Notes under the pieces: generated by a model
Told to the model about the DNA's origin: nothing
What the model saw: the letters and a program-made list of their open reading frames with translations, nothing else
Database searches by the model: none
Translations under genes and position numbers: made by a program
In this document: positions 8,706-47,645 of the stretch, piece after piece
Position numbering within the stretch: position 1 is the first letter of the stretch
How the letters are laid out: each line of letters starts with the position of its first letter
Assembly (NCBI GenBank): GCA_002733505.1
Contig: NVVW01000001.1
Coordinates: 88,200 to 152,199 of the forward strand
Source: Methylophaga sp.
Lineage (GTDB): Bacteria; Pseudomonadota; Gammaproteobacteria; Nitrosococcales; Methylophagaceae
Direction: 5' to 3'
DNA: 64,000 nucleotides

Positions 8706-8954
8706 CTACTCTTTTCCATTTATGGTCACAATGATATTTCTACTGCCACCCTTATTTCTATGCTCACAAAGATAAACTCCTTGCCATATTCCAATATTTA
8801 AATTGCCGTTTGTTATCGGTAAACTTAGGTTGAACCCTAGAATACTACCTTTGATGTGTGCAGGAATATCATCCGAACCTTCATCCATATGTTTATAATA
8901 AGGTTGATTTTCTGGTACCGTACGGTTGAAGAAACATTCAAAGTCTTCACGTAC
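8706..8954 (-). pseudogene. yjbQ: yjbQ 3' portion (C-terminal about 80 codons), separated from its 5' portion by the insertion
   Basis: Reading the minus strand from about 8949 gives EDFECFFNRTVPENQPYYKHMDEGSDDIPAHIKGSILGFNLSLPITNGNLNIGIWQGVYLCEHRNKGGSRNIIVTINGKE. This is colinear with the C-terminal two thirds of YjbQ. The ORF track shows only the last 60 aa. Confidence 0.75.
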
Positions 8955-36574: not shown

Positions 36575-38095
36575 ATGGTCTATGCAAATCCAGGAACGCA
36601 AGAAGCCGTTGTTTCATTTAAAGAACGTTACGGCAATTATATTGGTGGCGGATGGGTTGCTCCTGTAAAAGGTGAGTATTTCGCTAATATCACTCCGGTG
36701 ACAGGCGAAGTCTTTTGTGAAATTCCCCGTTCAACGGAAGAAGATATTAATCTAGCGCTTGATGCCGCGCACGCTGCCAAAGATGCTTGGGGTAAGACAT
36801 CGGTTACTGAACGCTCTAATATTTTATTAAAAATAGCTGATCGTATCGAAGAAAACCTTGAAATGTTAGCCGTTGCAGAAACATGGGATAACGGTAAAGC
36901 TGTCCGTGAAACCCTTAATGCTGATGTACCACTCTGTGTGGATCACTTCCGTTATTATGCCGGTTGTATGCGCGCGCAAGAAGGTACTATGGGTGAAATC
37001 GATGAAACCACCGTTTCCTATCAATTTCATGAACCTTTAGGAGTGGTAGGTCAGATTATACCGTGGAACTTCCCATTATTAATGGCGGCATGGAAACTTG
37101 CTCCAGCCTTAGTGACAGGCAACTGTATTGTAATGAAACCGGCGGAACAAACACCCGTTTCTATCCTTAAATTAATGGAAGTTATTGGTGATTTGTTGCC
37201 ACCAGGTGTACTTAATATTGTAAATGGCTTTGGTAGAGAAGCAGGTGAAGCATTAGCAACCAGTACCCGCATTGCAAAAATAGCATTCACCGGTTCAACC
37301 CCCGTCGGTCAACATATTCTTAAATGTGCCGCAGAAAACTTAATTCCATCAACCGTTGAATTAGGCGGGAAATCTCCGAATATTTTCTTTGAAGACATCA
37401 TGCAGCAAGAAGATGATTACATCAGCAAATGTGCTGAAGGTGCTGTTTTAGCTTTCTTTAACCAAGGTGAAGTATGCACTTGTCCTTCTCGTGCCCTGAT
37501 TCAAGAAAGCATTTATGATGAATTTATTGCTATTGTCATTGAGCGTTCTAAGAAAATTATTCGTGGTAATCCGCTCGATACCGATACCCAAGTGGGCGCT
37601 CAAGCGTCACAACAACAGTTTGAAAAGATCCTAGATTACATTGAAATCGGCAAACAAGAAGGTGCTGAACTATTAATCGGCGGTAATATTGCCCAAGTCG
37701 GCAGCGAATTTAATTCTGGTTACTATATTGAACCCACCTTATTCAAAGGCACCAACAATATGCGGATCTTCCAAGAAGAAATTTTTGGCCCTGTTGTTTC
37801 AGTGACTACTTTTAAAGATGAAGCTGAAGCTTTAGCTATTGCCAATGATTCGGAGTTTGGTCTGGGCGCAGGTTTATGGACGCGCGATATGAACCTTGCT
37901 TACCGTATGGGACGAGGCATTCAGGCAGGTCGAGTATGGACAAACTGTTATCATCTCTACCCTGCTCATGCCGCATTTGGTGGCTATAAAAAATCAGGCA
38001 TTGGTCGTGAAACCCATAAAATGATGCTTGATCATTATCAGCAAACTAAAAACTTATTGGTAAGTTATAGCACTAGCCCTCTTGGCTTCTTCTGA
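36575..38095 (+). CDS. NAD(P)-dependent aldehyde dehydrogenase (AldB/ExaC-like)
   Basis: 506 aa. ELGGKSP glutamate motif and catalytic Cys in [12 protein letters not shown]. Confidence 0.9.
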
Positions 38096-38174
38096 CTTAA
38101 CCCGAGCACTTGAGCTTACTTATAAATGTCTATATTATGTAGTCATATTTTCATTATTTTTTATAGGGGGTAAA

Positions 38175-38411
38175 ATGAAAGCTTCTATTGTAGATTTAAG
38201 GTATAAAACAGCTGATATTTTGAAAGCACTTGATAGAAATGAAAGTGTTAGTGTTATGTATCATGGTAAGATTAAAGGCATTATCAAGCCTGTTAAGGAA
38301 AAATCTTTTTCTAAGGTTAAAGATCATCCTTTCTTTGCTATGAACAATGATGCCGAGCAATCCGTATTGCAAGAATTAGAGACGCTAAGAAAACCACGTC
38401 ATGCTCTATGA
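38175..38411 (+). CDS. type II antitoxin (Phd/YefM-like N-terminus) paired with VapC
   Basis: ORF 38082-38411, trimmed to ATG 38175 behind an AGGGGG RBS. 78 aa, MKASIVDLRYKTADILKALDRNESVSVMYHGKIKGIIKP. The stop overlaps the vapC start. Confidence 0.6.
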   Translation: MKASIVDLRYKTADILKALDRNESVSVMYHGKIKGIIKPVKEKSFSKVKDHPFFAMNNDAEQSVLQELETLRKPRHAL

Positions 38412-38778
38412 TACCGATATTTTAATTTGGATCCAAAGAGGCAATGAAAAGGCGGCAAGACTCATTGAAAAAGATGAAGACAAACATCTTTCAATTCAAA
38501 GTTATATGGAACTATTACAAGGTGCAAAAAATAAAACCCATCACCGATATGTGAAAGACTTTATTGCTGAATTTGAGTTTTCCATATTACCTTTAACTGA
38601 AAACATAGGTCATAGAGCTTTGATATACGTAGAAGAACACGCACTATCATCTAATATGAGAGCGGGTGATGCAATTATTGCAGCTACTGCAAATGAGAAT
38701 AATATGCCTCTTGTTTCCAGCAATGTAAAACATTTTAAAGCTATAAAAAAGCTACAGCTAAAAGCATTCAAACCATGA
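38401..38778 (+). CDS. vapC: PIN-domain ribonuclease toxin VapC
   Basis: 125 aa. Acidic PIN residues in MLYDTDIL, SYMELLQG and RAGDAIIAATA. 11-nt overlap with the antitoxin. Confidence 0.8.
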   Translation: MLYDTDILIWIQRGNEKAARLIEKDEDKHLSIQSYMELLQGAKNKTHHRYVKDFIAEFEFSILPLTENIGHRALIYVEEHALSSNMRAGDAIIAATANENNMPLVSSNVKHFKAIKKLQLKAFKP

Positions 38779-40869: not shown

Positions 40870-41274
40870 ATGGCAAAAAAAGAAATACCCTCAGATGAAA
40901 GCCAACGATTAGATAAATGGTTATGGGCTGCGCGATTTTATAAAACGCGTAGTCTTGCTGTAGAGGCCGTTAATGGTGGCAAGGTTCATCTGAATAAGAA
41001 TCGTGTTAAACCCAGCCGTACTATCAAGCCTGATGATATATTAACCATATCAAAACCGCCTTACCAACATATCATTACCGTATTAGCCCTAAATAAACAA
41101 CGTCGCCCTGCTCCCGAAGCACAGCAACTCTATATTGAAAGTGATGAGAGCATCGCTAAGCGAGAGAAACTTTACCAAGAAATAAAAAACCAGCCTTTAG
41201 GATTTCGACATGAAAAAGGCAGGCCTAACAAGCGTAATCGCCGCCATATTATAAAATTCACTCGTAAATCTTGA
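40870..41274 (+). CDS. hslR: ribosome-associated heat shock protein Hsp15 (S4 domain)
   Basis: RLDKWLWAARFYKTRSLAVEAVNGGKVHLN S4 motif. Start moved from 40855 to ATG 40870 because 40855 lies inside a repeat half-module (GGAATGAC) and 40870 follows AAGGA. Confidence 0.8.
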   Translation: MAKKEIPSDESQRLDKWLWAARFYKTRSLAVEAVNGGKVHLNKNRVKPSRTIKPDDILTISKPPYQHIITVLALNKQRRPAPEAQQLYIESDESIAKREKLYQEIKNQPLGFRHEKGRPNKRNRRHIIKFTRKS

Positions 41275-41774
41275 AAATTAATGAATATTCTTGTCAACCA
41301 AATTCATTTAGCCCAGTTGTATTAACGGTAGACGTTCTACAATCAACGGAGAAATAAAATGAAGGTACACTTAACGCTTCTTAAATAGAGGCTGTTCCAC
41401 CCTAAACTTTAAGTGTCAAAATGTGACGCACTTTGCGCATTTGAGGGAAAAGTGTGCGGTACGTCTAGAAAAATATGTGATGCCACTCACATTTTACTAT
41501 TTTATCCAACCCCTAAAATTGGTTACTTTGTAGCTACCACTTTATAGCAATAACCGTTCTTTAATACTCCTAAACCTAGACTACAACTTAATTCATGTAT
41601 TTTATTATTATATTTAATTTTTATTTTCCATGTTTTTCATAATGAAAGTCAAACTATTTTTCATCAATTAAACGCCTGACTGCGCTAGACATAACGCCTT
41701 GTTTCAGTCAAAAATAAGGTGCATAGGAATTTAAACATTTATGCTATACAAATTAATTTCAGGAGATAAAAGGA

Positions 41775-42695
41775 ATGGATAATTTAGCACGTTTGGACAG
41801 CTTACAAGGTAGTAATTTGGCGAATATTTCGCACCTTCAGGAAACTTATCAGCACCAAGTTCAGGAAAATGAGAATCAATACTCTCAATTAGCAACACAT
41901 TATGATGCTAAATATAAAATAGCTTGGCTTTTAATGAAATCAGCACCAAGACCCTGTTTTACACCAATATTACTAAATGATTTAAAATCGCACGTAAATC
42001 ATATCAAAACTGAAATGTCTTATACGCGTAACGAGAAATATGATTATCTTGTTTTAGGCTCAAATATAGAGGGGATTTTTAATCTTGGCGGTGATTTAGA
42101 TTTATTTCGCACACTGATTGAGCAAAAAAACCGGGAAGGATTACTAGCTTATGCCATGGCAGGAGTTGATCTCGTTTATCAAAACATGAAACATTTTGGC
42201 CTTGATCTGACTACCGTTTCCCTTATCACAGGTGATGCTTTAGGAGGTGGGTTTGAAGCTGCCATGTCAGCAAATCTAGTCATTGCCGAACGTGGCGTAA
42301 AGTTAGGTCTGCCTGAGGTGTTATTTAACCTGTTTCCAGGAATGGGAGCCTACTCGATACTTTCAAGAAAAGTGGGCACTGTCGTTGCCAAAAAGATGAT
42401 TTTATCTGGAAAATTATATAGTTCTGAAGAACTTTTTGATATGGGAATCATTGATATTTTAGCTGATAAAGGCGAAGGGGAACTCGCACTATACAAACAC
42501 ATAAAAGCAGCAAAACGCTCACCTAATAGCTTTAGTTCAATGGCTAAAATCAACGATCTTTGTAATGAGATCCCGTATCAAGAGTTTGTTGATATTGCTA
42601 ATATTTGGGCTGATGCTGCTTTAAACCTATCAGATAAAGATTTACGAATGATGGATCGTTTAGTCTCTCGCCAAAGTAAAAGGTTCGTAGCCTAA
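41775..42695 (+). CDS. rpfF: RpfF-like crotonase-fold DSF-family signal synthase
   Basis: 306 aa. PRPCFTP...FNLGGDLDLF...GDALGGGFEAAMSANLVIAERGVKLGLPEVLFNLFPGMGAYS...DRLVSRQSKR is colinear with Xanthomonas RpfF as I recall it. The two catalytic Glu lie 20 residues apart. AGGAG RBS. Confidence 0.7.
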   Translation: MDNLARLDSLQGSNLANISHLQETYQHQVQENENQYSQLATHYDAKYKIAWLLMKSAPRPCFTPILLNDLKSHVNHIKTEMSYTRNEKYDYLVLGSNIEGIFNLGGDLDLFRTLIEQKNREGLLAYAMAGVDLVYQNMKHFGLDLTTVSLITGDALGGGFEAAMSANLVIAERGVKLGLPEVLFNLFPGMGAYSILSRKVGTVVAKKMILSGKLYSSEELFDMGIIDILADKGEGELALYKHIKAAKRSPNSFSSMAKINDLCNEIPYQEFVDIANIWADAALNLSDKDLRMMDRLVSRQSKRFVA

Positions 42696-42707
42696 ACCCA
42701 CCCAAGC

Positions 42708-45260
42708 CTAACCAGCAGTATTATTACCTGCCAAATCAACTGTAACAGCCTTAGCTACCGCTTTATTTAAGGCTGTTACAGTATTATTGTATATCATCTT
42801 AATATCCTCACTTAATTGAAGCATCTTTTCTGTTCCAATATCATAAGGCTTATAGGACTCTCCTTGACGGCATATATCTACCAGTTTAGTTGCGCCCAAC
42901 TCAGCTGCCGATCCTTTTAGCGCGTGCAGCGATTCGCGTATTTGAAGATAATCGTCATCAATCGCATTGTCAATTCTGGCTATTTGTTTTTCACCATCAA
43001 ATATAAAACCTTTAATTAATTTTGCAATAAAAGCCGGATCAGTGTCCAACATAATTAATGACTGGAATATATTTTCATCAAACCACTCTCCTTCTACGGC
43101 ACGTTTCTCTTCCCCAGTTATATTAACTGGAAGCCGTGCTACCTTCTGCTGACCTACTTCTTTACCTTTGCTAGATGTTGATAATTTTGCAATTTTTACT
43201 AATAATTCTTTTGAATCAAGCGGCTTAGTTAAAAATTCATCTACGCCTGCATCAAGGCTTGCTTGTCTTGCTTCAGGTGTCGCATCTGCGGTGAGCATAA
43301 TGGTTGGGATCTGTTGCTCAGCACTCATATATTGCATCGCTAAGACCACTTCATCACCTGAACGTCCTGGCATGTTCTTATCAACAATGAGTAAATCAAT
43401 TTTTTCAATGTCTGCTTCTAAAATATCCAGCGCTTTTTCACCATCATCTGTAAGAATGACTGAATGGCCTGCTCGCCTTAATATTCCATCAATAACTTTT
43501 TGATTTACTAAATTATCTTCTGCGACAAGAATAGTTAAAGGTTTAGCCCCTATTTGTCTTGCATAATGCTCTGAAAGAGAAACGACATTTTCTGCATTTG
43601 AGTGAATGCTTTGTGCGGCATGAATAGCATTAAATAATAAGCGTTTGTCAAGAATGTCAGTAATCACTGATATATAATGCTCACCTATATCTTCTTCTAA
43701 CAAGTTATCACCGCGATTATTTAACAATACCCATGAAATATTATTTAATAACTGTTCTACTTTAAGCATTTCTGAGAACTGTTTGGGTGTAAAATCAGCC
43801 AAACATTGTCGTTCGACCAAAACCACTTTATGCCCATCTCCTTGTTCAATAGCTTGACTCAATAATTTTAATGCGTTAACAGGCGAATTCACTTCATCAA
43901 ATTTTATTTTCCAACTTTCTAACATTGGTTTTAATTCTGCTGCTGTTTGCTCACCGGACATTACAAGTAGCTTATTATCAGAAATATCTAAGGAATCATA
44001 TGGAATAATGTTGAAAGGTAATTCAAACCAAAATGTTGAGCCCTTATACCGTTTACTTACTACGCCTATTTCTCCCCCCATTAATTCCACCAACTCTTTT
44101 GAGATTGTTGTTCCAAGACCGGTTCCGCCCTCTTTTGTCTGACCTACTTGAGTGAAATCATCAAACACACTATCAATCACATCCGTATCAATACCTATTC
44201 CGGTATCTTTTATTTCAAAACGTAGTTTCGTCGTAGCTTCATCATTGCTGAGGCTATAAAGATGTAGATTAACCGAGCCTTGTTGGGTGAATTTAATCGC
44301 ATTACCCACTAAATTAATCAAAACTTGTCTTATATGCGGCTGATCGCCTTCAAGCAAAAACGGCACGTTAGAATCAATTGTGCACGAAACAGTTAAGCCT
44401 TTGGTATTCCCTATTGGCCTCTGCAGTTCTAGAACCGAATTAACCAAGGCATGTAAATCTAAGCGTTTTTTGGTTATTTCAATCTTACCTGCTTCAATTT
44501 TGGAAATATCTAATACTTTTTCAATTAATCCAAGCAGTGTATGAGCGGATTTATGCATTGTATTGGCTAAATCAGACTGTTCACTATTCAAATCTGTTTC
44601 TCGCAACAAATCACCCAAACCAATTACGCCGTTAAGCGGTGTCCTTAATTCATGTGACATATTGGCTAAAAACCGGCTTTTAGCTTCATTTGCTTGCTTC
44701 GCCGTTTCTGTTGCCGCATGTAATTTCTTTATCAAGAAAGCGGCATATAAAGGTATTAATGCCAATAAGAACAATAAGCTGTGGGCAATGGCAATATTTT
44801 CAGATGTTTGCCAATATTCACCAAATTCAGTTGCGGTCACAAAACCAAACAGACCTATTGCTAACGATATATATAAATAATTAACACCAAATCGAAAACC
44901 ATTGCCCAGGATAACCCACAAATAAATACCGAAGAAATAAATACTTTCCGATCCAGCCATCATCATTGCAGATGACAAGGTTATGATATCTAACAAGATT
45001 CCTGCAATTCGACGAATAGGTGAAGAGACTGGCTCAATAAGAAGTGCTGCAGTAAGAACCATAGCACCACTATAAAACCATAGCATTGGTTTTGCCAGTG
45101 GCGAAACTATTCCTGCATCCGTCCAAGGAATAGAAAAATAGAGCACAAGGCACAGCCCGATTACTAATCGGATGATGATTTGTTCAGGCTCAGAGTCTTC
45201 AATATTTTTTACACGCTCTCGAAACCATGTCAAGCCTTTACTTTTGAACATAGCACTCAT
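42708..45260 (-). CDS. rpfC: RpfC-like hybrid sensor kinase (TM sensor, HisKA-HATPase, REC, HPt)
   Basis: 850 aa. Multi-TM N-terminus. H-box FLANMSHELRTPLNGV. HATPase motifs DTGIGI and GGTGLGTTISKELVELMGG. Receiver LLIVDKNMPGRSG. C-terminal HPt SLHALKGSAAELGA. Confidence 0.75.
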   Translation of the reverse strand: MSAMFKSKGLTWFRERVKNIEDSEPEQIIIRLVIGLCLVLYFSIPWTDAGIVSPLAKPMLWFYSGAMVLTAALLIEPVSSPIRRIAGILLDIITLSSAMMMAGSESIYFFGIYLWVILGNGFRFGVNYLYISLAIGLFGFVTATEFGEYWQTSENIAIAHSLLFLLALIPLYAAFLIKKLHAATETAKQANEAKSRFLANMSHELRTPLNGVIGLGDLLRETDLNSEQSDLANTMHKSAHTLLGLIEKVLDISKIEAGKIEITKKRLDLHALVNSVLELQRPIGNTKGLTVSCTIDSNVPFLLEGDQPHIRQVLINLVGNAIKFTQQGSVNLHLYSLSNDEATTKLRFEIKDTGIGIDTDVIDSVFDDFTQVGQTKEGGTGLGTTISKELVELMGGEIGVVSKRYKGSTFWFELPFNIIPYDSLDISDNKLLVMSGEQTAAELKPMLESWKIKFDEVNSPVNALKLLSQAIEQGDGHKVVLVERQCLADFTPKQFSEMLKVEQLLNNISWVLLNNRGDNLLEEDIGEHYISVITDILDKRLLFNAIHAAQSIHSNAENVVSLSEHYARQIGAKPLTILVAEDNLVNQKVIDGILRRAGHSVILTDDGEKALDILEADIEKIDLLIVDKNMPGRSGDEVVLAMQYMSAEQQIPTIMLTADATPEARQASLDAGVDEFLTKPLDSKELLVKIAKLSTSSKGKEVGQQKVARLPVNITGEEKRAVEGEWFDENIFQSLIMLDTDPAFIAKLIKGFIFDGEKQIARIDNAIDDDYLQIRESLHALKGSAAELGATKLVDICRQGESYKPYDIGTEKMLQLSEDIKMIYNNTVTALNKAVAKAVTVDLAGNNTAG

Positions 45261-45285
45261 TCGTTTCTTTCCTGTTCACTCTATT

Positions 45286-46470
45286 TTAGGAGCCTGGGTT
45301 ATCGGCATACTTACTTTCAATATTTTTTATTTTGTCGTATCGCTTTAAAAAAGCATCAACACATTCAGGATCGAAGTGCTTGCCTGATTGTTGTTTTAAA
45401 TAATCCAATGCTTCTTCTACCGGCCATGCCATTTTATACGGTCGCGCAGATATCAAAGCATCATACACATCGGCCACTGCAACAATTCGACCTATAAGCG
45501 GAATAGCTGCACCTTTTAAACCTTTTGGATAACCACTTCCGTCAAACTTCTCATGATGTGTCAGGGCAATAATGGCTCCCATTTGCATATATCTTGATTC
45601 ACTATCGACAAGAATATCATGACCTATTTCCGCATGTTGCTGCATTATTTCCCATTCTGCAGCATTAAGTTTTCTGGGTTTAAGCAGTATTCCATCAGGA
45701 ATTCCTATTTTGCCAATATCATGCATAGGAGCCGCATACTCAAGAAAATCACATTCCTCTTCTGATATACCTAATTCTTCTGCAATTTGACGTGAATATT
45801 TTGCCATTCTGATAACATGATTACCTGTTTCTTCATCACGATATTCACCCGCTTTCGCCAAACACAACAGTGTTTCCTTCTCACGCGCAATAATCTGCTC
45901 GGTTGCCAGTTCAACTTGCTGCGCCAACCATTGTGCTCGTTTTTGAATAATTGAGTGCTGCTCACTCAGTTTAAGCAGATTTCTACAGCTAGTTCTACAC
46001 TCGATATGATCAATGGGACGTGTTAAAAATGCGGTTGCCCCCGCTTCTAATGCGCTATACCGTACTGTTTTTTCATCCGCAATGGTTATCATCATAATGG
46101 GGATGTCTTGGCAACCTTCTCGGCCACGGATTTTTGTTATGAAATCAATACCATTCATATCTGGCATTCGATAATCAGTAACAATTAAATCAGGATGATT
46201 ACTATCTAACCATTCTAATGCATCAGCCGGGTGTTCAAATTCATGCAGTACAATATTACCCATCACCTGATGAAGAATTTTGCCCATAATCATCCTGCCC
46301 GTTGATTCATCATCAACGATAACTACATGTTTATTGAGATCAGGAACTTTCACTAAATTCCGACCTGTTGCGTAAGAGACATGATGTTCATTTATACTGT
46401 CTTTATATTTAATTAAAGCCATCTGAGCATTCTCTTTCCGTCGAATATATACATCCTTTAATATCGGCAC
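45286..46470 (-). CDS. rpfG: RpfG-like response regulator with HD-GYP c-di-GMP phosphodiesterase domain
   Basis: 394 aa. Receiver (VVIVDDEST...DLIVTDYRMPDMNG) plus HD-GYP (APMHDIGKIGIP...HHEKFDGSGYPKGL). The start codon is uncertain (GTG 46470 or ATG 46422). Confidence 0.8.
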   Translation of the reverse strand: MPILKDVYIRRKENAQMALIKYKDSINEHHVSYATGRNLVKVPDLNKHVVIVDDESTGRMIMGKILHQVMGNIVLHEFEHPADALEWLDSNHPDLIVTDYRMPDMNGIDFITKIRGREGCQDIPIMMITIADEKTVRYSALEAGATAFLTRPIDHIECRTSCRNLLKLSEQHSIIQKRAQWLAQQVELATEQIIAREKETLLCLAKAGEYRDEETGNHVIRMAKYSRQIAEELGISEEECDFLEYAAPMHDIGKIGIPDGILLKPRKLNAAEWEIMQQHAEIGHDILVDSESRYMQMGAIIALTHHEKFDGSGYPKGLKGAAIPLIGRIVAVADVYDALISARPYKMAWPVEEALDYLKQQSGKHFDPECVDAFLKRYDKIKNIESKYADNPGS

Positions 46471-46636
46471 TAAAGGCTCATATCTTTAGCTACCATCTTT
46501 ACTATAATTGTTAAACCTGAAAAATTACTTCGCAAACCACCACCAAAATCACACCTAAAATAATACTACCTTTGCAAGAAAAATAAAAGTAAAATTATTT
46601 ATAATCATTGATCTAGTAGCATATCTTAATTAATAA

Positions 46637-46802
46637 CTTAAGGAATATCTGCTCAAGTCTGGACGAAATAGCTTGCGTCAAAAATATTCAATTTTAAGGT
46701 GGAAAATGAAGGTAAAGCGCGCTATTGCAAAGTTTTTAACGTAGAAGCTGGATATTTTGAGCGTATGATATAAGTTCATGACTTGAGTAAAGCCTCCTTA
46801 AG
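46637..46802. mobile_element. MITE-like element, family 2 variant (about 166 bp)
   Basis: Ends CTTAAGGAATATCTGCTCAAGTC / GACTTGAGTAAAGCCTCCTTAAG are related to the 35345 copy and to a solo end at 40785-40806. Confidence 0.55.
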
Positions 46803-46826
46803 AGTGCATTCTTAAATATCAAACTA

Positions 46827-47645
46827 TTATTGCTTGTATTGTTCTATTCTATTAAATACTAAAAAATGCTTACCTTTAGCGCGTGCCACTAAACCAATTC
46901 CAATTTTTTGAGCAATACTCAACCCCATTTCTGTGATCCCAGAACGTGATAAAAGCAAGGGAACCTGCATCTGAGCAACTTTAATAACCATTTCAGATGT
47001 AAGCCTGCCTGTTGTATAAAATACCTTGTCAGCACCTGACACGTCATTCAATAACATCCAACCAGAAATGGCATCAACAGCATTGTGCCTACCCACATCC
47101 TCAACAAAAACCTGGACTTGACCTGAGTTTGAGCACAAAGCACAGCCATGTACCGCCCCAGCCTGTTTATATACTTTATTATATTCAGTTAGCCCAGCAA
47201 GCACTTGATAGATTGTATCTGCTGTAAAATCTGAGCATGTAATGGTCAGTTTCTCTAACGATGCCATCACATTACCAAACATGGTTCCCTGACCACAGCC
47301 ACTTGTCACTGTACGTTTTGATAAGATCTCGTCAATATCTAGCTGTTGCTGTTGCGTTGTTACCGCAACAGCCTCAACATCCCAATCGACCTGTATTGCA
47401 ATAATATTACTCAAAGATTGAATTAAACCCTGATTACGCAAATAACCCAGTGTCAACAGCTCTGGTTGACTGCCCATTGTCATCAACGTTACTATCTCTT
47501 TTTTATCAAGATATATCGTCAGCGGCCTTTCGCCCGTTAATGCGATTTCACGTGTTTCCCCATGCTCATCTACCACTTGGGTCGAATAAAGCGTATTAAT
47601 GCCTTCATTGGTCATTATTGGCCGAAAATCAGCCACCCGTAGCAC
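46827..47645 (-). CDS. fdhD: formate dehydrogenase accessory sulfurtransferase FdhD
   Basis: 272 aa. VTSGCGQG catalytic Cys loop and the VGRHNAVD motif. Confidence 0.85.
   Translation of the reverse strand: MLRVADFRPIMTNEGINTLYSTQVVDEHGETREIALTGERPLTIYLDKKEIVTLMTMGSQPELLTLGYLRNQGLIQSLSNIIAIQVDWDVEAVAVTTQQQQLDIDEILSKRTVTSGCGQGTMFGNVMASLEKLTITCSDFTADTIYQVLAGLTEYNKVYKQAGAVHGCALCSNSGQVQVFVEDVGRHNAVDAISGWMLLNDVSGADKVFYTTGRLTSEMVIKVAQMQVPLLLSRSGITEMGLSIAQKIGIGLVARAKGKHFLVFNRIEQYKQ

Follow-up and report, generated by a model that had tools for sequence, protein, structure and literature searches.

Described rpf clusters and the present locus

[quoted passage not shown] In the Xanthomonas reference locus used for comparison (L084, reached from the Xanthomonas campestris pv. 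campestris (Xcc) RpfF sequence through a Xanthomonas RpfF to its contig), rpfB and rpfF face rpfC (726 amino acids, aa), rpfH and rpfG (378 aa), and 11 bp separate the stop codons of rpfF and rpfC. Ryan et al. 2015 (PMC4504480), with reference to Ryan et al. 2008, name Methylophaga, Leptospirillum, Thiobacillus and Methylobacillus as carriers of rpfF-rpfG-rpfC clusters outside the xanthomonads; all of these hold the same triad and have no rpfB. Leptospirillum with an rpfFCG cluster produces DSF-family compounds, its cluster being reported as unidirectional and the rpfC of L. ferriphilum as split (PMC8357829). Marine metagenome-assembled genomes (MAGs) with RpfF and RpfC/G have been inventoried in a cold-seep survey (PMC12781772). 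The DNA analysed here, a stretch of 64,000 nucleotides from contig NVVW01000001.1 of assembly GCA_002733505.1 (hereafter the window, from whose first letter all positions are counted), carries a locus that belongs in the Methylophaga clade of such clusters. On comparative grounds, three adjacent genes in it very probably constitute an orthologous rpfF/rpfG-rpfC module for DSF-family cell-cell signalling in an uncultured Methylophaga-like gammaproteobacterium. The full gene content of the triad is present, each protein is an orthologue of its Xanthomonas counterpart, the catalytic and phosphorelay residues are intact, the sensor motif is conserved, and the triad is co-conserved among related loci.

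The resemblance to Xanthomonas extends to the same three proteins, the convergent layout with rpfG upstream of rpfC on one strand, the pair of catalytic Glu residues, the His-Asp-His relay, the HD-GYP motifs and a sensor input domain with a DSE..Q tail. An earlier note on this DNA, made from the sequence alone, had likened the architecture and arrangement to Xanthomonas rpfF versus rpfC-rpfG, and the likeness proves to be one of orthology, with identities of 41% for RpfF (over 245 aa, E 5e-70), 40% for RpfC and 45% for RpfG (over 366 of 378 aa, E 3e-115). The differences are that the window locus has neither rpfB nor rpfH, carries Ile at the position of sensor Arg15 and Arg in place of the receiver Lys of RpfG, has a synthase about 17 aa longer at its N-terminus and a kinase longer by 124 aa, the latter because of an additional pseudo-receiver, and resides in a marine methylotroph-type lineage rather than in a plant pathogen. 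In the RpfF-RpfR systems of Burkholderia and Cronobacter, which use the Burkholderia diffusible signal factor (BDSF), the synthase belongs to the same NF006452 family as the window protein, but the receptor there has PAS-GGDEF-EAL architecture, whereas that of the window is a membrane hybrid kinase with an HD-GYP regulator. No gene for a PAS-GGDEF-EAL receptor was found between 36.5 and 50 kb of the window, and RpfR-like neighbours occur in a different set of related loci. The cluster is an ordinary further member of a known system, and its presence in the genus is already published. The earlier note's remark that the circuit had not been characterised in its lineage is overstated: the cluster was already listed for Methylophaga, but the literature search found no experimental tests of DSF signalling in Methylophaga or comparable marine methylotrophs.

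Organization of the three genes

The rpfF-like gene (41775–42695, plus strand) encodes a crotonase-fold, DSF-family synthase of 306 aa, identified from the list of open reading frames (ORFs) and from Pfam, NCBIfam and PDB matches. On the minus strand lie the gene for an rpfC-like hybrid sensor kinase of 850 aa (42708–45260; ORF list, Pfam and alignment) and that for an rpfG-like REC plus HD-GYP response regulator of 378 aa (45286–46422; ORF list, Pfam and comparison with Xanthomonas RpfG). All three ORFs lie where the earlier note had placed them, at 306, 850 and, for the maximal ORF of the regulator, 394 aa. The stop codon of rpfF occupies 42693–42695 and that of rpfC 42708–42710, and the spacer between them (42696–42707) measures exactly the 12 bp previously claimed. 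The corresponding distance in the Xanthomonas locus is 11 bp (8871–8881); spacers of 11–12 bp between convergent stops leave no room for a terminator, so that in both lineages the opposing transcripts may overlap. Scans of the locus for promoter and terminator consensus sequences gave no more matches than chance would, or fewer, and were disregarded.

The REC/HD-GYP neighbour of the kinase was also read correctly, but the stated order, kinase and then regulator, has to be reversed: both genes are on the minus strand, hence rpfG is transcribed first and rpfC second, and rpfF thus converges on an rpfG-rpfC pair as in Xanthomonas. These two genes are 25 bp apart, and a ribosome-binding site, AGGAAA, precedes rpfC; rpfF has the Shine-Dalgarno sequence AGGAGA 8 nt 5' of its start. 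The maximal ORF of the regulator begins at a GTG at 46470 (394 aa), but the ATG at 46422 (378 aa) is the more likely start, because a Shine-Dalgarno sequence, GGAAAGAG, lies upstream of it and because the resulting length is close to the 376 aa annotated in relatives and the same as the 378 aa of Xanthomonas RpfG.

The RpfF-like synthase

The motifs previously read in this protein, PRPCFTP, FNLGGDLDLF and GGGFEA followed by LPEVLFNLFPGMGAYS, are all present, and Glu161 and Glu181 are 20 residues apart. This pair aligns with the Glu pair of 3m6m, the structure of Xcc RpfF (E141 and E161), and is invariant across a 22-homologue alignment, as are the flanking GGG, PGMG and Trp278 positions. Among solved structures the protein matched 7zq7 (E 1.6e-58), 3m6m (2.8e-57), 6dgn (2.7e-56) and 5fus (1.2e-55) at 192–202 bits, whereas enoyl-coenzyme A (CoA) hydratases reached at most 56 bits (generic hydratases about 1e-14) and 5wyb 52.7 bits (4e-13). 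The chain in 6dgn, deposited as RpfF and about 37% identical to the window protein, is taken here to be Cronobacter RpfF, as 5fus is taken to be Bcam0581 and 5wyb to be DspI. The earlier note had proposed placing the crotonase among RpfF, DspI and Bcam0581 or among housekeeping hydratases; by these scores the window protein falls with the DSF/BDSF synthases and not with hydratases or DspI. It also scores 355.7 bits against NCBIfam model NF006452 (cutoff 177), which gives 396 bits to Xcc RpfF and 398 bits to the RpfF of 6dgn and thus describes a broad DSF-synthase family. More than 6,900 homologues exist, many of them labelled ‘DSF synthase’ by IMG. The one structural peculiarity noted before, an N-terminal extension of 45 aa, shrinks to about 17–19 aa against Xanthomonas RpfF and the NCBIfam profiles and to about 14 aa against other Methylophaga homologues.

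The RpfC-like sensor kinase

Pfam finds HisKA, HATPase_c, Response_reg and Hpt domains in the kinase, in agreement with the multi-domain hybrid kinase first described, and the H-box SHELRTPLNG read before is present. Its RpfC-type input domain (residues 1–185; 44706–45260, minus strand, as are all the kinase segments), delimited by alignment to Xanthomonas RpfC, consists of a short tail, which carries D22-S23-E24-x-x-Q27, and then about five membrane helices; residues 24–183 show five or six hydrophobic segments. HisKA (DHp) and HATPase_c (CA) follow at residues 193–417 (44010–44684; Pfam). The canonical receiver, with E581, D582, D627, T657 and K679, spans residues 577–690 (43191–43532), and the HPt domain, with H779, spans residues 749–803 (42852–43016), both by Pfam and alignment. 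H203, D627 and H779 are the phosphorelay residues, in the His-Asp-His domain series typical of RpfC, and together with K679 they are invariant in 44 kinase homologues.

The alignment with Xanthomonas RpfC is colinear from residue 10 of the window kinase and residue 5 of the Xanthomonas protein, whose N-terminus is MKSPLPWLKRRLSGRADSEHAQNLIR, through every helix. The 40% identity applies to residues 10–418 (E 6e-95), a stretch that takes in the sensor tail and every membrane helix, and falls to 28% in the REC-HPt part. In the N-terminal tail, the window sequence LTWFRERVKNIEDSEPEQIIIRLVI aligns with Xanthomonas LPWLKRRLSGRADSEHAQNLIRIII, so that the motif IEDSEPEQ stands opposite RADSEHAQ. Residues R15, D17, S18, E19 and Q22 of the RpfC tail are essential for DSF sensing (Cai et al. 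2017, PMC5391125), and four of these five membrane-proximal residues are kept in the window kinase, as D22, S23, E24 and Q27. Among 44 long homologues, the Glu occurs in 44, the Gln in 41, the Asp in 36, Ser or Thr in 29 and the Arg in 26.

The tail varies among near relatives. In kinases of the clade of Methylophaga sp. NORP65, the MAG nearest to the window (loci L001, L002 and L004), it reads DAEPEQ, not DSEPEQ, with Ala at the position of Ser18 in Xcc RpfC. The substitution S18A in Xcc RpfC impairs DSF sensing, and the Ala of the NORP65 clade may mark a shift in signal specificity between sister species.

The RpfG-like regulator

The regulator carries the HDIGKIG and HHEKFDGSGYP motifs by which the earlier note had recognised a REC plus HD-GYP protein, and Pfam concurs with matches to Response_reg and HD_5/HD (HD_5 E 1.1e-35). 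It resembles the HD-GYP protein 4mcw (E 3.8e-60), presumably PmGH; the metal-ligand numbering assumed for that protein did not map cleanly and was set aside in favour of motif identity in the HMMER alignment. D53, D54, D99, T129, H250 and H305 (the His of the HD and HH motifs) and GYP are invariant in 42 homologues.

Conservation of the triad

Comparison with 83 related loci (80 genome contigs and three metagenome contigs) found the three genes convergent and in the same order in 44, the synthase and kinase genes in 13, and no kinase gene in 26; many members of the last group lie on short contigs or beside a GGDEF-EAL (RpfR-like) gene. Among the hosts are Methylophaga (for instance the cultured M. 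thiooxydans, L006), Zetaproteobacteria, Thioalkalivibrio, Acidithiobacillus, Thiobacillus, Sideroxydans, Methylobacillus and Nitrospirae. A failure of the triad to be conserved together, which the earlier note had named as grounds for rejection, is thus not what is seen, the same convergent order recurring in many phyla. In a neighbour-joining tree the window synthase falls within a Methylophaga-type clade, every member of which is linked to the kinase and regulator genes. An rpfB-like ligase gene lies near the synthase gene in one related locus only, and the absence of rpfB is therefore the rule outside the xanthomonads.

The predicted signalling pathway

By homology, and with good confidence, the signal chemistry, ligand binding, phosphotransfer, phosphodiesterase activity and regulated traits of this locus would follow the DSF pattern. 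The RpfF-like crotonase would dehydrate a 3-hydroxyacyl-acyl carrier protein (ACP), supplied by fatty-acid synthesis, to cis-2-enoyl-ACP and would then cleave the thioester, releasing a diffusible cis-2-unsaturated fatty acid. The RpfC-like kinase would bind this signal with its membrane helices and the short tail at its N-terminus, would autophosphorylate at H203 and, by way of D627 and H779, would hand the phosphate on to D99 in the RpfG-like regulator. The HD-GYP domain of the latter would then hydrolyse cyclic di-GMP (c-di-GMP) and so shift behaviour controlled by that messenger, for example the balance between attachment and motility.

Contrary evidence and competing explanations

Several observations weigh against this interpretation. 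The position of Xcc RpfC Arg15, needed for a full DSF response, is Ile20 in the window kinase. The conserved receiver Lys (K109 of CheY) is Arg151 in the regulator (394-aa numbering; 46018–46020); Arg occupies it in 29 of 42 regulator homologues linked to RpfF/RpfC, and Lys in the other 13 and in Xanthomonas. The synthase fails the narrow RpfF equivalog NF053515, with 233.8 bits against a cutoff of 550; this model also rejects the RpfF of 6dgn (184 bits), scores the Methylobacillus, Thiobacillus and Acidithiobacillus homologues at 218–251 bits, and is a narrow one for xanthomonad RpfF sensu stricto. With its pseudo-receiver, the kinase is not identical in architecture to the RpfC that has been characterised. 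There is no rpfB next to rpfF, the remainder of the genome lying outside the sequence seen. Finally, the locus sequence is present only in metagenomic DNA runs (subsurface, seawater and marine), and no RNA-seq run containing it was found.

The alternative that best withstands the evidence accepts the genes as rpf orthologues but supposes that they do not report the density of their own population: fatty acids of outside origin, whether environmental or made by other species, would be the main stimulus of RpfC and RpfG, and RpfF would chiefly be either an acyl-ACP thioesterase with an effect on membrane lipid homeostasis or a protein that partners the kinase. It is in keeping with the broad thioesterase activity of Xanthomonas RpfF, counteracted by RpfB (Bi et al. 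2014, as listed in PMC4504480), given that no rpfB is adjacent here, with the RpfF-RpfC protein interaction and catalysis-independent RpfF signalling reported in Xanthomonas and Xylella, and with a sensor tail that departs from Xanthomonas at Arg15 and, in the nearest relatives, also at Ser18. However, the strict conservation of the Glu pair and of pocket-lining residues argues for retained enzymatic signal synthesis, and in a self-signalling circuit synthase and sensor would be expected to be inherited tightly together, as they are; this account is decidedly unlikely. Far less probable still is that the cluster, though present, has decayed or lost its function in this lineage. The two changes at normally conserved positions, Ile for the sensor Arg15 and Arg for the receiver Lys of RpfG, could be read in that way, but the latter is the majority state among homologues, the three ORFs are full-length, each with a Shine-Dalgarno site and with all catalytic and relay residues intact, and sister-species orthologues at 82–91% identity retain the reading frames. 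That the crotonase is a housekeeping enoyl-CoA hydratase of beta-oxidation placed beside two-component genes by chance, as its generic Pfam matches (ECH_1, E 3.4e-19, and ECH_2 only) and its bare NCBI family name ‘crotonase/enoyl-CoA hydratase family protein’ might allow, is effectively refuted by its bit scores against DSF/BDSF synthases and hydratases, by the recurrence of the convergent adjacency in distant phyla and by the homology of the kinase input domain to that of Xanthomonas RpfC. An orthologous module for DSF-family cell-cell signalling remains the preferred explanation of the three genes.

The pseudo-receiver of the long-form kinase

The earlier note had seen a degenerate receiver-like segment ahead of the canonical receiver, and profile methods bear this out, placing a pseudo-receiver at approximately residues 428–550 (43611–43979, minus strand). 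Nothing in Xanthomonas RpfC corresponds to residues 419–555 of the window kinase, and the domain complement thus differs from that of Xcc RpfC by an extra domain of about 110–120 aa between CA and REC. A profile of residues 428–572 from 43 homologues matched the kinase's own REC with 96.8% probability (E 2.5e-10, hhalign) and the REC of RpfG with 94.3%, as against 0.1–0.3% for the HPt or sensor profiles. A hidden Markov model of the pseudo-receiver searched against the PDB found mainly receiver domains, with 3grc best (E 2.4e-6), followed by PleD, CheY, PhoB and DivK. The segment lacks the acidic pair or pocket and the conserved Lys, and Glu483 occupies the position of the phospho-Asp. Profile methods alone detect the similarity: Pfam searches of nine individual pseudo-receiver segments gave no Response_reg match even at E 10. 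A single-sequence AlphaFold2 model of the segment was all-helical, with a predicted local distance difference test score (pLDDT) of 44.8, and could not be used.

The long form is widespread. The spacing between the phosphorelay His and Asp is 424 aa in the window kinase and 314 aa in Xanthomonas (H198 and D512, positions read from the reference locus), and it is 421–437 aa in 48 of the 55 related loci that bear an RpfC, including those of Thiobacillus, Acidithiobacillus, Zetaproteobacteria and Nitrospirae, which share the pseudo-receiver kinase with the window. Short kinases are confined to the Methylobacillus/Methylophilaceae/Sulfuriferula group and one other locus; those of Methylobacillus and the Methylophilaceae, at about 715–740 aa, have no pseudo-receiver and, unlike the window kinase, a tail of the form C-D-x-L-E-L-E-Q. 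ShkA-type hybrid kinases likewise have a pseudo-receiver between CA and REC. The best PDB match of the kinase core is 6qrj (‘Hybrid kinase’), presumably ShkA of Caulobacter, and the window kinase has the same order of DHp, CA, pseudo-receiver and REC; the match is restricted to DHp-CA (residues 198–417), and the two pseudo-receivers are likened by position alone. No paper linking RpfC with a pseudo-receiver was found in the literature search.

The rpfF upstream region

The intergenic region of 500 bp before rpfF (41275–41774, plus strand) is AT-rich and a putative promoter/operator region, with blocks kept in loci of the NORP65 clade. The non-coding stretch of about 500 bp that the earlier note had described is therefore real, but its designation as a leader finds no support: no RNA family was credibly matched, an Rfam search of 41000–47000 at E ≤1 returning one spurious snoRNA match and no known leader RNA. 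The region contains a perfect palindrome of the CRP/FNR (Clp) type, TGTGA-N6-TCACA (TGTGATGCCACTCACA), at 41476–41491, 284 bp 5' of the rpfF ATG, which is a candidate operator. TGTGA-N6-TCACA is taken here to be the CRP/Clp consensus; in xanthomonads, Clp is a c-di-GMP-responsive output of the Rpf pathway. The palindrome is the only perfect site in the 64 kb of the window, where 0.12 would be expected, and its half-sites are kept in the NORP65 clade while the spacer varies. In 1.29 Mb of related loci, seven of the eight perfect sites fall within 300 bp upstream of an rpfF homologue, and sites with at most one mismatch are enriched about 13-fold in these upstream stretches, the loci in this count being not independent but representing roughly three lineages. 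CRP control of rpfF is reported in Stenotrophomonas, to go by its listing in PMC4504480. The palindrome suggests that a CRP-family protein may control rpfF transcription; the ORFs of the window that were scanned include no gene of the CRP/Clp family. As separate observations, the perfect CRP/Clp-type palindrome 5' of rpfF is kept in related marine lineages, and about 50 bp farther upstream a second conserved block, GTGAC-N6-TGCGCATTT (about 41420–41441), recurs in the NORP65 clade.

Host and genomic neighbourhood

The earlier note had taken the DNA for an Alteromonadales-like chromosome, which MetG matches and synteny contradict in favour of a Methylophaga-like host. MetG of the window shares 92% identity with proteins from Methylophaga MAGs and 79–80% with those of cultured Methylophaga species; among its top matches, the taxon-specific names are all Methylophaga, the other named ones being labelled only Gammaproteobacteria bacterium. 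The MAG NORP65 also supplies the best genome match to the synthase (89%), and the synteny of its contig with the window, with DNA about 82% identical, runs through ahpC, an araC-type gene, exaC, acs and hslR, then rpfF, rpfC and rpfG, and then fdhD and moaA. The flanking genes are ordinary chromosomal housekeeping genes. The stretch upstream of rpfG, which reaches as far as the fdhD end (46423–46826, minus strand), is a putative promoter region of the rpfG-rpfC operon, in which no specific element was identified.

Immediately 5' of rpfF lie hslR and then acs. The latter, an AMP-binding gene two genes upstream, encodes the acetate–CoA ligase Acs (1039 bits), and no FadD/RpfB-type ligase is found beside rpfF, as the earlier note had observed. 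A tblastn search of the window with Xanthomonas RpfB matched acs alone, at 28% identity, and a search with Xanthomonas RpfH matched only the membrane domain of the kinase itself; the rpfB and rpfH of a Xanthomonas-type cluster are thus both missing from the window locus.

Two features of the surroundings stand apart from the signalling genes proper. Between exaC and acs (38082–38778), an antitoxin-like ORF (about 38175–38408) overlaps a PIN/VapC-like ORF (38401–38778), the VapC NCBIfam matches of the latter being weak and below cutoff; the pair is missing at the equivalent site in the sister-species contigs L001 and L004, which identifies it as a lineage-specific insertion of toxin-antitoxin-like type. 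The locus from the Guaymas MAG B21_G2 (L010) occupies the same chromosomal site as 34.7–48.7 kb of the window, with ExaC, Acs and Hsp15 92%, 88% and 88% similar, and RpfF, RpfC and RpfG 62%, 60% and 70% identical. With flanking proteins at 88–92% and Rpf proteins at 60–70%, the signalling genes are diverging far more rapidly than the genes around them.

Implications for DSF-family signalling

With this locus, a further intact rpfF/rpfG-rpfC cluster, that of an uncultured Methylophaga-like species of the subsurface or of seawater, joins those already described; alone it changes little. What is new is modest and amounts to two leads, the long-form RpfC with its pseudo-receiver and the conserved CRP-type palindrome upstream of rpfF. 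A bolder proposal, which is speculative and unlikely to hold, would make the long-form RpfC the common natural form of the DSF sensor, with the pseudo-receiver as an added regulatory step, serving either to dock and sequester RpfF or, as a ShkA-type feedback module, to bind c-di-GMP; combined with the CRP/Clp-type operator, this could place signal synthesis in marine Methylophaga-type bacteria under a feedback loop that depends on c-di-GMP. The CRP-type site 5' of rpfF provides a concrete, testable regulatory hypothesis. For the family at large, since most RpfC proteins outside the xanthomonads carry the pseudo-receiver, conclusions reached with Xanthomonas RpfC, such as the sequestration of RpfF by its REC domain, may not transfer to them directly.

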